A stretch of DNA of 64,000 nucleotides, from sequence record KJ190158. One strand, given 5' to 3'. Source of the stretch: Escherichia phage FFH2. A model generated the notes under the pieces. That model searched no databases. It worked only from the letters and a program-made list of their open reading frames with translations, and was not told the DNA's origin. A program made the position numbers and the translations under genes. Below, in pieces: positions 9,101 to 54,581 of this stretch. Numbering within the stretch: position 1 is the stretch's first letter; each line of letters begins with the position of its first letter.

Positions 9101-9409
9101 ATGCTTAAAATTTTTATTATTGAAGATAAAGATATTGTCCAGTTGTATGCAAACGAGAATCATAAAGGTATGATTCTGAAGAAGGCAAGCAACCTTCATG
9201 AAAACACAATTCAACCTGGCGATGTAATTAAGATCTGTGGTTATATGATACCAGACTCCTTGATGAAAATAACCCACCACTGGGGGTCTAATCCGTTCCT
9301 TTTTGAAAAGTATTGGGATGTTGAGTCACTTATTGCAGAGAGTGATGATGCATTCCATTACAGCATTCAACCATCTTGCAGAATAACTAACAGGAGGGTC
9401 TTTGAGTAG
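9101..9409 (+). CDS. hypothetical protein (102 aa)
   Basis: ORF with AGGAG SD. Confidence 0.4.
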   Translation: MLKIFIIEDKDIVQLYANENHKGMILKKASNLHENTIQPGDVIKICGYMIPDSLMKITHHWGSNPFLFEKYWDVESLIAESDDAFHYSIQPSCRITNRRVFE

Positions 9410-10541
9410 AGAATATCCACTTATTGAGTCCATAGATTGTCTGGCTGATCTTCTTGAACCTGACGCTATAGTTTATTATGACTTCGATCAGGTTGCATAT
9501 CAAGCTGCAGCAAGTTGTGAAAAAAGGACAATTGAGGTAACACACAAAGCCTCCGGACGTAAGAAGATGTTTAAAACACGAACAGAGTTCTGGGGGCGGC
9601 AGAAGAACACCGTTGGTGGTTGGTTAAAAGCTGAGAATACCAACCGTGAAGCTGCATGTAAAAAGGCTGGCAAGGAGTTTATTCCGTGGACACGGGAAGA
9701 TTTTGATGTCTTGGATATCCAAACCCCTGATCCTGTAGAGAACTGCTTGCACACAATTAAGTGTAAAGCTAATGCAGTCCTTAATTATCTCGGTATTCCG
9801 GAAGATCGGTGCGTGGGGGTACTTGGAGGCACAGGTAATTTCAGACTAGATCTTCCCATGCCGGAAAGATATAAAGCCAACCGTAACAATACTCTTCGAC
9901 CACTGCTGCTTGGAGATGCAAGACAGTATCTCCAAAAGCAGTATAATGCTCAAGTGATCAACGGTATCGAGGCTGATGACTGGTTAGCTATCCAGCAATT
10001 TGAAGGTTGGAACCACTACCAAAAAACAGGTAAGTTCAACAAGTTTATTATCTCTATTGATAAGGACCAAAGAACACTACCGGGGCTTGTGTTCGATCCC
10101 ATGCGAAACGATAAGGGAGATTTTGTAAGGGAAACCCCTATGCTGATCGATAACGGTATGGGTAACATCTTCATGAAGCCTAATGGAGAGGTTGGTGGTT
10201 ACGGAATGCTGTTCTTCGGATACCAAATGCTGTGTGGTGACTCTGCTGACAACATCAAGCCGTATCAAGGACTTATCGGTAAGGGTAAGTTCGGGGATGC
10301 CTCAGCATTCTACCTGCTGTCTCAGTGCAGCACTCCAAAGGAGATGTGGGTGGCTATTATTGATCAGTACAAGAAGTGGTTCCCGAAAGGTGTTGTTAAG
10401 TATACTGATTTCAATGGTATTGATCGTAGAATTTCCGTAGGTCAGTGGATGAGTATAATTTTTGACTGTTTGTATATGAAGCGAACATTCAATGATCAAA
10501 CAAAACTTGTTAACGTTCTTAGAAATGTTGGAGCAATTTGA
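9402..10541 (+). CDS. 5'-3' exonuclease / flap endonuclease (FEN, RNase H-like)
   Basis: ERYKANR and GIEADDWLA match the YKxxR and G-EADD motifs of 5' nucleases; TTG start with AGGAGGG SD. Confidence 0.65.
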   Translation: MSREYPLIESIDCLADLLEPDAIVYYDFDQVAYQAAASCEKRTIEVTHKASGRKKMFKTRTEFWGRQKNTVGGWLKAENTNREAACKKAGKEFIPWTREDFDVLDIQTPDPVENCLHTIKCKANAVLNYLGIPEDRCVGVLGGTGNFRLDLPMPERYKANRNNTLRPLLLGDARQYLQKQYNAQVINGIEADDWLAIQQFEGWNHYQKTGKFNKFIISIDKDQRTLPGLVFDPMRNDKGDFVRETPMLIDNGMGNIFMKPNGEVGGYGMLFFGYQMLCGDSADNIKPYQGLIGKGKFGDASAFYLLSQCSTPKEMWVAIIDQYKKWFPKGVVKYTDFNGIDRRISVGQWMSIIFDCLYMKRTFNDQTKLVNVLRNVGAI

Positions 10542-40392: not shown

Positions 40393-42805
40393 CACACAAT
40401 TAGCTGCCCGGCTAAAGTGCTGGAAGCACCTATAACACATCTTTCAACTAAATTTCCTACCACCACAATCACTTACCTCCCACACATGACTGTTTGCTTG
40501 TTTAGTGAGCAGTCATGCCTTGACATTCTTGCCTATCCTGATAAAATTAAGTTCTTCTCTTTTCTTTTACCGAGTAATTCGGGTTTTCTGTTCTCTTCGG
40601 TTTGAAGGGGTATAGAGATACACCTGAGTGAACAGGGTGAACAACCGAACATTTGGCTATGGCATTAGCATGGCGAAGCGGACGGGTGACGAAAGAGGGG
40701 CCGGAGGACACCAGTCACTGCCATATGATATATGGGTGATAACCTGAAGAGTCTGAATAAGTGTTTAAGTACCAGTCAGAGGAAAAGGTGAATGGTAGCC
40801 GAAGGGGGAGGGGGGTTTCTTGTATCTTTAATTTGTATATTATGTATACACTTGTAAACCAATCTCATCTGAATTTGTTTACCACACAAAGTGGATAGGG
40901 ACAAATATTACCTATTAAACTTGAATTATTTATAGAAATACCACAACACCACTTAAGTCTTTGATTTTACACACAAATCCTACAGATATTCACCCTCCAT
41001 ATTTAACATACCTGTAACATATTCCATACCCTACCTGACCGATCAATTCACCCAACTACATCCCCATATTTTCCCTGTCTGTACTACCCCTGCCCCGCCG
41101 GGAGTCCCGTCATATCTGGCTTTCCAGCAAATATCACACCCACAAATATCATTGCCTGAAGAGGGTTTCATCCCATAATACATGCCTTACCTGAAGAGCG
41201 CTTCATACACCACGTAAATTTTTTAATTGACCCCCTCCCCGCCGCCGGAGAGGTTGGCTTTTCCCACACAGACCTGAAGAGTCAGCCAGAAATATCTGAA
41301 CAGGTCCAGCTATGCCACGATTTTGTGCTTGTCCTACAGGAGTGCCTCCCTGTCAGGAGCCGGTAGCGACTGGAGTGCTGCCAGGCGGACGAAATGGGAA
41401 TCATTCTCATTCTTATAACAATTCTCAAATATCGAGGCAGTGAGGCAAATTAATAGGTGAGGCCGTTCACACAATGGCACAACATTTGCAACCTATCTTG
41501 TGGGAGTGAATGAGAATACCTATCATTGTGAGAATAGTTATCATTACGGGCAATTTAACATAATACCCATTATGCGCACCACTGGCGATCCATACAGGGA
41601 TTGATAACATGGGTTACTGTTTACACACATAACAATTATATTTCTTACTATTTGTGTGGGATATAGTTAGCAGCCGATAGATTAGATATTGACCTGTAGA
41701 CTTCCAACCGTCCAGACGTCTAAACGCCCACACAACAAGGGTTATACATACACAACTGAATGTAAACAGGGCCGCAAAAATGCTACCATACAAGCTTGTA
41801 AATTTTTCATGCAGCACTTGACAAAGAGGAGGAAAACTTGTCTGACACTTTAGACACAATAGTGACATAATATGACATAATGGTGACACTGAACATAATT
41901 GACATGCCTGACTGTTTACATAGCTAACTATTCATACAGAAATGATAAGCCATGCCATTCGTTTGCATGATAATAATTAACTTGTTTACAATAGATGACA
42001 TAATATAAAAGCAGGGCAACTATTAGAAGATCTATAGTTGCCTTGCTTGTTATGTCATGATTAACTAAATACAAGGCAACTATGATCTGATTAATAGTTT
42101 GCAGACAAACTATCACGGGGGTGATGGTTACTGCTTTTATATTATGTCGCGACTCCGTCGCGCCATGCCATTCGTTTGCATAGTTGCCTTATTGTTACAG
42201 ATAAAATAATTGTATTGTTAATTATTTCTTATCTTTCTCTTAGTCATCTAATGATTCCAGTCAGTATAGTAATGTACAGTAAACATTAGACGACTAAAGA
42301 TTTCTCTGTTTATTATAACTTACCGTGACAATTTCAGGCTGTTTACGAAAAATGTTGACACCTGGGCCGATTTATGTTATGCAGTTTACACGAATAATTA
42401 TTTTATGCAGGTATTGACTATTCCGTTATTCTATGGTTGGAATAAATACTTAGCAGACTATAGAATGGTGAGCGTACGTAAATTCTGAGATCTGGCGGCT
42501 ATAGTTATACTCGATTTTTCACGTAGAACACGCTTTTGTTAGTGTGTAAGTGTATGACTTATAAAGATTTTTAGTTGTTGACAAGATATTGAAGATGTGC
42601 ATCAGGTTAAATTTTGTGCAATAGCGGCATTACGTGCAATTTTGAGAGAGAAAACGGGTAAAAATGGCCTTGCTATCACACAATGAAAAATTATGCAATA
42701 GTTATTTTACATGTATGTTTGTACAGTGTGTGGGATTGATGGCTAGTCAATTATTCCACTTGCCAGGCTGGGCCGTTTGTGGTAGGAGAAATACAGACAA
42801 AAAGA

Positions 42806-42830
42806 AAGGGGCCTTTTAAAGCCCCTGATA
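42806..42830 (-). terminator. intrinsic terminator for the leftward block (GGGGC tttaaaag GCCCC + T-run on minus strand)
   Basis: Read directly just downstream of the stop of ORF 42845..43264. Confidence 0.55.
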
Positions 42831-42844
42831 GTTTAGTTAAGAAA

Positions 42845-43264
42845 TTATAATGATTCGTATATTTCATAGATTCGATTTGCCAGGTCGTTACGGTAGCGGA
42901 ATTTTTCCTCACGTTTGATCATCAGATCTTTAAAGCCATATTCTTTAAGCACTTCATTAACTTTATGGCGGCATACCTTCATATTATCCTGTGCGTCACC
43001 AATAAACCTGTTGCTATGGTGCATGGCTTTAATTTCTTCTTCCAGGACCAGAGCAACTATGCGGACCGGATCAAGCTGATAGGCGGTAACATCCATGCGG
43101 CATTGTAAACGACTTTTTACGTCTGCCACCGGATATACTGCAACCTCTTCCCCGTCAACATTGACAATAATTAGTTTACCATCGATTTCGAATCCTTTCG
43201 CCGCCGGACCGTGACAAAAAGCGTTATCAAAGCTATATGCCGGATTATTAGATTTAATGTTCAT
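42845..43264 (-). CDS. hypothetical protein (139 aa)
   Basis: AAGAGG SD; promoter TTGACA-17-TATATT upstream. Confidence 0.45.
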   Translation of the reverse strand: MNIKSNNPAYSFDNAFCHGPAAKGFEIDGKLIIVNVDGEEVAVYPVADVKSRLQCRMDVTAYQLDPVRIVALVLEEEIKAMHHSNRFIGDAQDNMKVCRHKVNEVLKEYGFKDLMIKREEKFRYRNDLANRIYEIYESL

Positions 43265-52973: not shown

Positions 52974-53058
52974 GATTTTTTATCCTCTCTGTTAATTAGT
53001 GTGGTGTTGTTCACCTTGCGAGGATAAGAATAACAAGAACTGTCCGAGCTGTCAACTA

Positions 53059-53235
53059 TTAGTTAAAATTATTTTTTGGGCGGAATTCTCCAGCCGCCGC
53101 CCCTGCCAGGTTAACCATCATTTTTTCGTACTCTTCTTTATATTCCAACGCTCCCGCTATAGCCTTTTCAACCAGGGCGATAGCCTCAGCGTCATTAATA
53201 GCTACATTTTCCAGGGGGATCATATTACCTTTCAT
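53059..53235 (-). CDS. small protein (58 aa), below ORF-track cutoff
   Basis: GAGGAGG SD; Ala-rich. Confidence 0.3.
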   Translation of the reverse strand: MKGNMIPLENVAINDAEAIALVEKAIAGALEYKEEYEKMMVNLAGAAAGEFRPKNNFN

Positions 53236-53394
53236 TTTTGTACCTCCTCTTCAATTGTTACCTATCCTATAGCATAGGCCCACCAGGTTTACAAGCCTTC
53301 ATTCTCTCCTACCTGGTCAGTTAGGTCCTGCCAGGCTGGCCCCACTAGGTTGCAGCGGTTAGTGCATCAGGTTAGAAAAATTTTTTGAAAAGTG

Positions 53395-53520
53395 TTGACA
53401 GCGGCCCCGCCAGGTGGCACAATATACCTATCGAAAGGACGGCAGGCACCGGTGACGGGGGAGACAACCACCGGGGATGGGCGCTGCATAAAATGAGAAC
53501 GGTTATCATTATCATTTAAA
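53395..53520 (+). ncRNA. candidate small RNA unit 1 (promoter, GC hairpin with GGGAGACAACCACCGG, then GAGAACGGTTATCATT tail)
   Basis: TTGACA at 53395; shares hairpin and tail motifs with unit 2. Confidence 0.3.
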
Positions 53521-53538
53521 AATTTATGCAAAAAATCC

Positions 53539-53660
53539 TTGCTTTCTTTGTCCTGTGTGATACTATAATAACAAGCCGGGGCAACAGGGGCCGGGAGACA
53601 ATCACCGGGCCTGCCCGTTATTCTGCAAACGAGAATGATTATCATTCAAAATTCTAAATG
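53539..53660 (+). ncRNA. candidate small RNA unit 2 (TTGCTT ... TATAAT, GGGAGACAATCACCGG hairpin, GAGAATGATTATCATT tail)
   Basis: Tandem to unit 1 in a non-coding island. Confidence 0.3.
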
Positions 53661-53762
53661 AGAACTCCTCGCATTTAATAAATTTAATTAGCACGCTAAT
53701 TACACTCCGTAACAATTTACTATAAAATAGTATCCACTAAAATATTCCCATATAGAAATTTT

Positions 53763-53950
53763 AAAAATCCATTTCTGAAAACGAAAAATCGATTTCGTCC
53801 CTAAAAATTTCAGGCCTAGATCCGGAACGATTTCCAGAAAATCCGATTCAGAAAACGAAAAACAGATCGAGTACTGAGAAATTTATCGAGAAAAATTTTC
53901 AGAAAATCCAAGCCCTGAAATGAAAAGTAGATCGAGTACCTGGAAAGCTG
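53763..53950. repeat. three degenerate tandem direct repeats (about 65 bp each; core AGAAAATCC ... CTGAAAACGAAAA ... GATCGAGTAC)
   Basis: Read directly; inverted partial copies at 54112-54215. Confidence 0.55.
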
Positions 53951-54251
53951 CACCGCAACTTCAAGATAGTGGTTAGATTGTTACCATAGAAGGTCAAGGG
54001 TAAGTGGAGGAAGTTCTAGTAGAGGGAGGTTAGCATGTGTGGGAAATCTATAATGGTGGCCTGGAATATAGTGCAAACGATAGGATGAGTTATTCAGCTT
54101 GTCGCGCCTACTCTGAAAAATCCATTTTAGTTTTCGATCCATTTTCTGATTTTCTAAGAATTTTAAAATATCCGGCCCGGTGAAATATCAAAAGGAGGAA
54201 ATCCATTTTAGAAATCCCCCTTATACTTGATATGCCAGGAATTTTCAAGTA

Positions 54252-54581
54252 TCAGCTGTCTTTGTTTTTAGGTTTGTACATGCGCAGAGGTATGGTCTTT
54301 GTAACATTCCATTTCCTCAACCCTTCCCAGCTCCAGTTGTGGGCGTGATACCCGGTTATGCATGCACTGCTGGCGTGATCATAAGCATAAGAGAACGCTA
54401 TGTGCACCAGGTGGGGCCAGTCCTTCCACGGCTGTGGACCGTAAGCCTTTCTCCAACACCGACACAAACTAATTGTCTCAAGAATAGGGAGAATAACAAT
54501 TCCATATACCACCACCAGAATGGTCAGTGCAATGATTGTCAGGAACACATACCCTGCAGTTGAAATGATGATCTCTGTCAT
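54252..54581 (-). CDS. membrane protein (109 aa)
   Basis: Two hydrophobic helices. Confidence 0.4.
   Translation of the reverse strand: MTEIIISTAGYVFLTIIALTILVVVYGIVILPILETISLCRCWRKAYGPQPWKDWPHLVHIAFSYAYDHASSACITGYHAHNWSWEGLRKWNVTKTIPLRMYKPKNKDS

Follow-up and report, generated by a model that had tools for sequence, protein, structure and literature searches.

Two non-coding islands in a 64,000-nucleotide stretch of Escherichia phage FFH2 (record KJ190158; hereafter the window) carry repeated copies of a palindrome that matches the operator of the host iron sensor Fur. We assigned the window to Vequintavirus, the genus of rV5-like coliphages. On balance we lean towards reading these boxes, from their sequence, as genuine host Fur operators arranged in arrays within two control islands, where they would gate transcription according to iron. 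The parts of this reading differ in strength: Fur is likely to bind the boxes in vivo, and transcriptional gating as the purpose, given binding, falls just short of an even chance. The first island (~40900-42845, ~2 kb, without open reading frames (ORFs)) lies between rV5 gp158 and gp159, where plus-strand and minus-strand gene blocks converge, and the rV5 genome paper labels it just 'non-coding'. The second (~53236-53980) is a ~750-bp gap within a long minus-strand block of small early-type genes. Both islands are A+T-rich and repeat-rich, and the flanks of both motif sites are 90-98% identical to ~120 rV5-like coliphages of the same genus.

The motif GAGAAYNNYTATCATT has four matches in the window, all on the plus strand (41512-41527, 41530-41545, 53495-53510 and 53631-53646), against 0.13 expected from shuffles; none of 100 shuffles reached four. 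A degenerate inverted copy lies on the minus strand at 41393-41408 (GAGAATGATTCCCATT), and 18 bp from it, at 41411-41426, is a weaker partner. The motif is genuine and not random, and the initial annotation, which had noticed it recurring in both islands, was right on this point, the inverted copy making a fifth. Its coordinates held to within 2-4 nt in island 1 and ran 7-18 nt too low in island 2: the ATGAGAA placed at 53477 starts at 53493; the copy placed at 53621 starts at 53629 and reads ACGAGAA; AATGATTATCATT, given as 53626, occupies 53634-53646; and TTATCATTATCATT, given as 53492, occupies 53503-53516. The second half that it had attributed to the copy at 41393 is missing, as the inverted copy has no TTATCATT half.

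To score the motif against Fur, we built a symmetric 19-bp weight matrix solely from 14 Escherichia coli K-12 Fur sites validated by footprint or gel shift, with site positions from Chen et al. 2007 (PMC2189734) and promoters taken from E. coli K-12. The validated sites align as AATGATAAT-N-ATTATCATT and score 17.7-28.1 bits when each is left out in turn. The top five of the ~64,000 window positions are five boxes, F1 to F5, starting at 53628 (25.9 bits), 53492 (23.9), 41393 (21.7), 41527 (20.1) and 41509 (19.0); the sixth, at 15.5 bits, is a subsite within F4 shifted by +6 bp. Five sites in the 64 kb score at least 17 bits, where random sequence of matched composition would give 0.19, and the 7-1-7 core with up to three mismatches has 21 matches in the window against 5.9 expected. 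The six top-scoring positions of the complete rV5 genome likewise all fall within the two islands, and strong sites number five to nine per genome. The boxes and the elements around them are as follows.

41393..41411: Fur box F1 (AATGGGAATCATTCTCATT), GAGAAT half on the minus strand; 21.7 bits, third best in the window; 16.2 bits in phages navn and rV5.
41411..41429: weak partner of F1 (TCTTATAACAATTCTCAAA), 9.1 bits; motif with three mismatches on the minus strand; its 18-bp spacing mirrors that of F2/F3.
41509..41527: Fur box F2 (AATGAGAATACCTATCATT), 19.0 bits; exact motif copy; first unit of an 18-bp tandem annotated as a repeat_region in phage navn.
41527..41545: Fur box F3 (TGTGAGAATAGTTATCATT), abutting F2 (18 bp, or three Fur hexamers); 20.1 bits; exact motif copy; 23.9 bits in navn.
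53395..53423, plus strand: promoter-like P_A, TTGACA-17 nt-CACAAT with a TG extension; a 10/12 consensus match only, from a promoter scan.
53459..53475, plus strand: copy A of the leader block (GGGAGACAACCACCGGG), no Fur site; forms direct repeat D5 with copy B (94% identity).
53492..53516: Fur box F4 (AATGAGAACGGTTATCATT, 53492-53510; 23.9 bits) with an overlapping +6 subsite (53498-53516; 15.5 bits); 26.3 bits in rV5.
53539..53566, plus strand: promoter-like P_B, TTGCTT-16 nt-TACTAT with a TG extension; below the scan threshold in the window.
53593..53609, plus strand: copy B of the leader block (GGGAGACAATCACCGGG), with TGCCCG after it; no Fur site; hardly varies across five genera.
53628..53652: Fur box F5 (AACGAGAATGATTATCATT, 53628-53646; 25.9 bits, the window best), the subfamily-wide box 1, with a +6 subsite (53634-53652; 11.6 bits).
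53657..53675: degenerate second box (AATGAGAACTCCTCGCATT), 29 bp after F5; 11.2 bits; 17.0 bits in rV5; 19.5-21.9 bits at +29 in GAP31 and Mydo.

Several details tie the boxes to characterized operators. Between F4 and the fecI operator TATGAGAATGGTTATCATT, known from footprinting, 2 of 19 positions differ. Among the validated sites, those of fecI, gpmA, ryhB, fhuA, exbB, oppA and fepB have GAGAAT, or ATTCTC as its complement, for a half, so that a GAGAAT half is ordinary for Fur. Overlapping +6 subsites (6-bp or 3-bp register) mark real Fur clusters (PMC2189734), and the window has them at 53498 and 53634, together with the 18-bp offset of F2 and F3; the same pattern is seen in relatives and in phage T5. 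Gel shift confirmed Fur binding for predicted sites of 12-26 bits (PMC2189734), and Fur should therefore bind phage sites scoring 19-29 bits. The initial annotation had likened the motif to a Fur-box half site. The Fur reading has strong support from the sequence and was understated, the scores being equal to those of validated sites, and the 'half site' part does not stand: the boxes, which are confined to the islands, are complete 19-bp operators in sequence. Their 7-1-7 cores match at 11-12 of 14 positions in the window, and in other genera box 1 matches at 13 of the 14.

The part of island 2 around F5 is detectable by nucleotide search in other Vequintavirinae (Seunavirus, Mydovirus and Certrevirus) and in Phapecoctavirus, which belongs to another subfamily. 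A common order runs through the five genera: a sigma-70-like promoter (TTGCAA-17 nt-TATATT), a leader of ~60 nt, then box 1. P_B is homologous to this promoter, its -35 TTG and -10 region aligning across all five. The leader contains a near-invariant block, GGAGACAAnCACCG...TGCCCG, shared by Vequintavirus, Seunavirus, Mydovirus, Certrevirus and Phapecoctavirus. Box 1, ~60-70 nt downstream of the promoter, is the best-conserved element of island 2 across the five genera (24.0-28.7 bits in the others), and it heads arrays of two to four boxes with an exact centre-to-centre spacing of 29 bp, at these positions in the relatives:

phiTE: boxes at 1538, 1567 and 1596.
ESCO13: boxes at 1101, 1130, 1159 and 1188.
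GAP31 and Mydo: boxes at 1029 and 1058.

The window itself carries a duplicated promoter-leader-box unit (P_A with F4), while its +29 box has decayed. A scan of relatives, which the initial annotation had proposed as a check, thus recovered the boxes in five genera and, as described below, in other phage families. In a Mydovirus-like contig, strong boxes cluster a second time ~10 kb from island 2, echoing island 1. Island 1 can be aligned within the genus only, and its boxes are no better conserved than their flanks (both 92-96% identity at genus level); with flanks equally conserved, conservation of island 1 within the genus is uninformative.

If these boxes are host Fur operators that gate transcription, Fe2+-Fur dimers would occupy them in iron-replete cells: in island 1, two abutting sites and one inverted site; in island 2, a strong site and the subsite overlapping it, following each of the two tandem promoter-leader units. 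Sigma-70 transcription that starts beside the arrays or crosses them would then meet Fur as a repressor or roadblock, such that island transcripts from P_A and P_B would be truncated while Fur is active and would read through when iron is low. In some genera, the boxes lie ~20 bp upstream of a further TTGACA promoter. Several observations weigh against gating by Fur. Measured from the inferred starts, F4 and F5 occupy roughly +58 to +76, where repressor sites are unusual. None of the window boxes clearly overlaps a good -10/-35 pair; F1-F3 are overlapped by weak promoter candidates only, and in rV5 the candidate loses its -10 T. No iron-related genes were found adjoining either island, and no fixed or preferred distance between box and promoter emerged across 121 phage contexts. 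Finally, the conserved non-Fur block beside box 1 means that the unit may have another primary function. This leader block (GGGAGACAAYCACCGGG, then TGCCCG), at 53459-53475 and 53593-53609 in the window, is near-invariant in the five genera.

The same arrays occur in phages of other families. The exact 16-mer matches more than 120 metagenomic viral contigs, mostly unrelated. Around these seeds, in 121 distinct metagenomic contexts, further strong sites are 38-fold denser within 150 bp than elsewhere, promoter-like sites are 2.6-fold denser near the boxes, and 20% of seeds fall in long open frames versus 72% of random positions. One IMG/VR contig has at least seven tandem GAGAAT hexamers running straight into GAGAATGATTATCATT, an expandable site of the kind that the hexamer-repeat view of Fur recognition predicts. 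A synthetic two-box BLAST query, an indirect survey rather than a matrix scan, matched 904 GenBank phage records, with T5-like phages scoring best. The hosts were mainly gamma-proteobacteria, among them Escherichia (352 records), Salmonella (243), Klebsiella (104), Vibrio (24) and Aeromonas (18); 21 'Campylobacter' records among the matches look like mislabelled Vequintavirus, and the matches listed outside these hosts, such as those in Listeria and Pelagibacter phages, are lone short hits with E-values at chance level. Arrays are therefore concentrated in phages of hosts with this Fur specificity.

Two of these phages were examined by position. In T5 (AY692264), boxes of 22.1, 28.7 and 23.3 bits occupy 9552-9715, spaced 35 and 69 bp apart. 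They fall within 'Repeat Region 3', which is untranslated and carries the annotation of injection stop signal, just within the terminal-repeat end. Along the surrounding stretch, 9400-9715, a LexA-like palindrome CTGTATAAATATACAG comes first, then DnaA boxes, the Fur-box array, a hairpin resembling a terminator and, last, GTGCAAATCCGACA repeats, apparently a string of host-factor sites where the terminal repeat ends. In Aeromonas phage 4L372D, from an unrelated genus, a near-perfect palindrome of ~1.4 kb carries ten symmetric Fur-matrix sites (maximum 28.5 bits) of the canonical GATAAT type; this palindrome lies within a non-coding region of more than 2 kb, ~8-11 kb from the left end of the record. 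The groups found to bear arrays so far are Vequintavirinae, Phapecoctavirus, T5-like Demerecviridae (in the injection-stop region) and Plateaulakevirus. From these we tentatively raise, as a doubtful generalization, that high-affinity Fur-operator arrays are a common feature of conserved non-coding control regions in large virulent gamma-proteobacterial phages. The host iron sensor might then have been co-opted as a cofactor, which could time or gate early development by iron, counter the silencing of A+T-rich DNA, or hold DNA during entry.

The arrays could instead serve as a sponge, in which high-affinity sites, numbering hundreds once the phage DNA replicates, titrate Fur, de-repress host iron uptake and so feed iron-dependent ribonucleotide reductases. 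We regard this as unlikely. Five to nine strong sites per genome, outside obvious gene promoters, would suit such a function, and rV5 encodes both NrdAB and NrdDG. Titration of Fur by multicopy Fur boxes is also the principle of the Fur titration assay. However, several thousand Fur molecules are present per cell, beside which these site numbers are modest, and a sponge does not need a fixed position behind a conserved promoter and leader. T5 has the same arrays but destroys host DNA within minutes, so that de-repressing host genes would be pointless there.

An architectural role is similarly improbable. Here Fur, with or without other proteins, would build a nucleoprotein complex for initiation of replication, packaging or a pause in ejection, with T5 as the model. 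The regular 29-bp spacing suggests an ordered complex; in T5 the array has DnaA boxes and a LexA-like box as neighbours in the injection-stop region, just within the terminal-repeat end; in the Aeromonas phage the boxes form part of a palindrome; and the window and its relatives carry three GATC-containing repeats of ~65-74 bp after the boxes. Yet LexA boxes are not enriched in the window, nor are DnaA boxes (8 versus 8.6 expected, one at an island edge and none paired), and the T5 replication origins map elsewhere. The rV5-like phages are reported to be circularly permuted and have no known two-step injection, and we know of no report of fur mutants blocking these phages.

The boxes might also be recognized by a phage-encoded DNA-binding protein with Fur-like specificity. 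Phage boxes lean a little more towards GAGAAT, with G at position -4 in 53% of them compared with 25% of E. coli sites, and 2.6 kb upstream of island 1 lies the gene for a phage transcriptional regulator, phrog_639. This regulator is the one annotated function nearby: the neighbouring genes gave no Pfam matches, and their other PHROGs hits are of 'unknown function' only. But phrog_639 was found in Vequintavirinae-type records only, and not in T5-like ones, whereas the arrays are also present in T5-like and Plateaulakevirus phages, the boxes of the Aeromonas phage are of the canonical GATAAT type, and sites of 19-29 bits should bind Fur regardless. Because unrelated families with different proteins share the motif, a phage-encoded regulator is disfavoured, and a host factor is the economical reading; we judge the phage protein distinctly unlikely.

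The initial annotation had offered a conserved 3' module of small RNAs as an alternative to regulator binding. The position agrees: the island 2 boxes lie 3' of two plus-strand promoter-leader units, each with a promoter of its own (P_A at 10/12, P_B with hexamers conserved across genera, both consensus matches only). Unit B folds modestly better than its shuffles (z = -2.66), with an upstream UUAUUCU pairing with the left half of the box, and a leader/box hairpin is possible in 90% of cells across genera. As an RNA element, however, the module is not upheld, and we hold it to be very unlikely. Rfam searches of the window and six related loci, at gathering and permissive thresholds, gave nothing credible, and no intrinsic terminator-like site was found on either strand of 53000-54300. 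The RNAalifold consensus of 14 sequences from the five genera reaches only -5.03 kcal/mol, without covariation; 61 of 500 shuffles reached the covariation score of a hand-built three-helix model, and the leader/box hairpin shows no two-sided change across genera. Unit A folds no better than chance (z = -0.94), the GAGAAT...TTATC asymmetry leaves a G-A mismatch in the box hairpin that is never compensated, and in island 1 and in other phages boxes occur in both orientations without the leader. The weakest alternative, chance similarity in A+T-rich, repeat-rich non-coding DNA, is vanishingly improbable and is ruled out by the enrichment of the motif (4 versus 0.13) and of strong sites (5 versus 0.19), by conservation across genera and by recurrence in other phage families.

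Coding and other RNA candidates were rejected separately. Neither the minus-strand ORF across island 2 (rV5 gp193) nor the small plus-strand ORFs are credible: indels of 1, 2 and 3 nt between genera inside the conserved block exclude coding, and the ATG-led Seunavirus frame is shifted in ESCO13 and lacks an ATG in Certrevirus. A tRNA scan found none. A pseudo-ToxI element was dismissed as well; the homologous place in phiTE is annotated 'terminator' only, with no non-coding RNA feature, and no link to an escape locus was found.

Viewed as Fur operators, the phage boxes have close counterparts on the E. coli chromosome. The fecI, gpmA, ryhB and fhuA operators (PMC2189734) share the 19-bp 9-1-9 palindrome AATGA(T/G)AAT-N-ATT(A/C)TCATT, the score range, the overlapping +6 subsites and the contiguous 18-bp register. 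They differ in setting: 83% of E. coli Fur clusters overlap the -35/-10 of a repressed gene (PMC2189734), whereas the phage boxes lie in transcribed leaders or between promoters and, in relatives, form 29-bp periodic arrays. The Fur sites of K-12 cryptic lambdoid prophages (nohA, nohB, ydfK and ynaE; PMC2189734, Table 4) are likewise high-scoring and in phage-derived DNA; the nohA site was confirmed by gel shift, and the prophage sites have no iron function attached to them. These are single clusters in temperate or defective prophages rather than conserved multi-site arrays in virulent phages, and sequence homology does not extend beyond the box.

T5 Repeat Region 3 has the same box AAATGAGAATCATTATCATTTGCA at 22-29 bits, arrayed in a large conserved untranslated region of a virulent coliphage. 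Davison (2020; bioRxiv 10.1101/866236) catalogued the repeats and palindromes of that region, called their function impossible to guess and did not mention Fur. The T5 array differs from ours in lying at the inner end of a terminal repeat, with DnaA and LexA-like boxes and without the conserved promoter and leader, whereas the window has no DnaA pairs and rV5-like genomes are circularly permuted. Among single Fur-controlled promoters, that of stx1 in Shiga-toxin phages is iron-regulated, a Fur box controlling a phage-borne promoter, and at ftnA several Fur sites upstream of the promoter displace H-NS (anti-silencing) without occluding RNA polymerase. The former is a lone operator serving a single cargo gene in a temperate phage, and the latter is chromosomal; neither is a conserved array of a virulent phage. 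The element type is known. Our literature search, which covered the rV5 and T5 papers and, in the library available to us, Fur boxes of phage genomes, transcriptomes of Vequintavirinae and Fur in relation to T5-like phages, found no prior account of conserved Fur-operator arrays in virulent phages.

Fur boxes have so far been known on bacterial iron genes and a few prophage cargo genes. Here, boxes that score as high as the strongest chromosomal operators are the best-conserved element of non-coding islands in a subfamily of virulent phages. Should Fur bind them, iron status would be an input to lytic development, or Fur would be a recruited host factor; either would be relevant to phage therapy in iron-limited host tissues and bears on the long-standing question of which factor acts on the injection-stop region of T5.

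Both islands hold further structure. Right of the Fur boxes in island 2, at 53746-53946, are three direct repeats of ~65-74 bp (AAAAATTTT...GAAAACGAAAAnnnGATCGAGTAC), each with a GATC, an arrangement also kept beside the boxes in the Seunavirus, Mydovirus and Certrevirus loci. These resemble iterons, or repeats bound by a protein at an origin, pac or regulator site, and are separate from the motif. The boxes themselves were considered as replication-origin iterons and rejected, being palindromes in both orientations in a window where DnaA boxes are not enriched. Upstream of the box unit, other genera have a highly conserved RNA-looking block with its own promoter, at ~800-960 (for example, 825-915; ACGCCACCCCACGGCGAAAAGGCGGGGCTAACGTACC...GGTCGGAAGGTGGATCGCCGGTAG); this block (ACGCCACCCCACGGCGAAAAGGCGGGGCTAAC) is absent from the window and has no Rfam match.

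In island 1, two similar G+C-rich hairpins at 41086-41130 and 41230-41275 (ACCCCTGCCCCGCCGGGAG...; ACCCCCTCCCCGCCGCCGGAGAGG then TTGGCTTTT) lie within repeat units of ~150 bp where the plus-strand gene block ends, and are probably terminators in tandem. No terminators could be found there in the rV5 paper. The stretches 41840-41910 and 41949-42200 hold a dense run of promoter-like TGACAYAAT words, an exact 20-bp direct repeat GCCATGCCATTCGTTTGCAT (at 41949 and 42162) and a perfect 18-bp inverted repeat that pairs 41997-42014 with 42131-42148. With these words and repeats, the structure of island 1 goes beyond Fur boxes. Several Vequintavirus records (MT884008.2, MH752840.1 and MN850612.1) open within a few hundred bases of island 1, and one opens 9 nt before box F1, which may reflect convention (a permuted genome opened at its largest gene-free gap) or a mapped terminus. 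Lastly, ~16-21 GenBank 'Campylobacter phage' records (MG0656xx; host Campylobacter jejuni) are 92-100% identical to this Vequintavirus and are probably mislabelled or contaminant assemblies.

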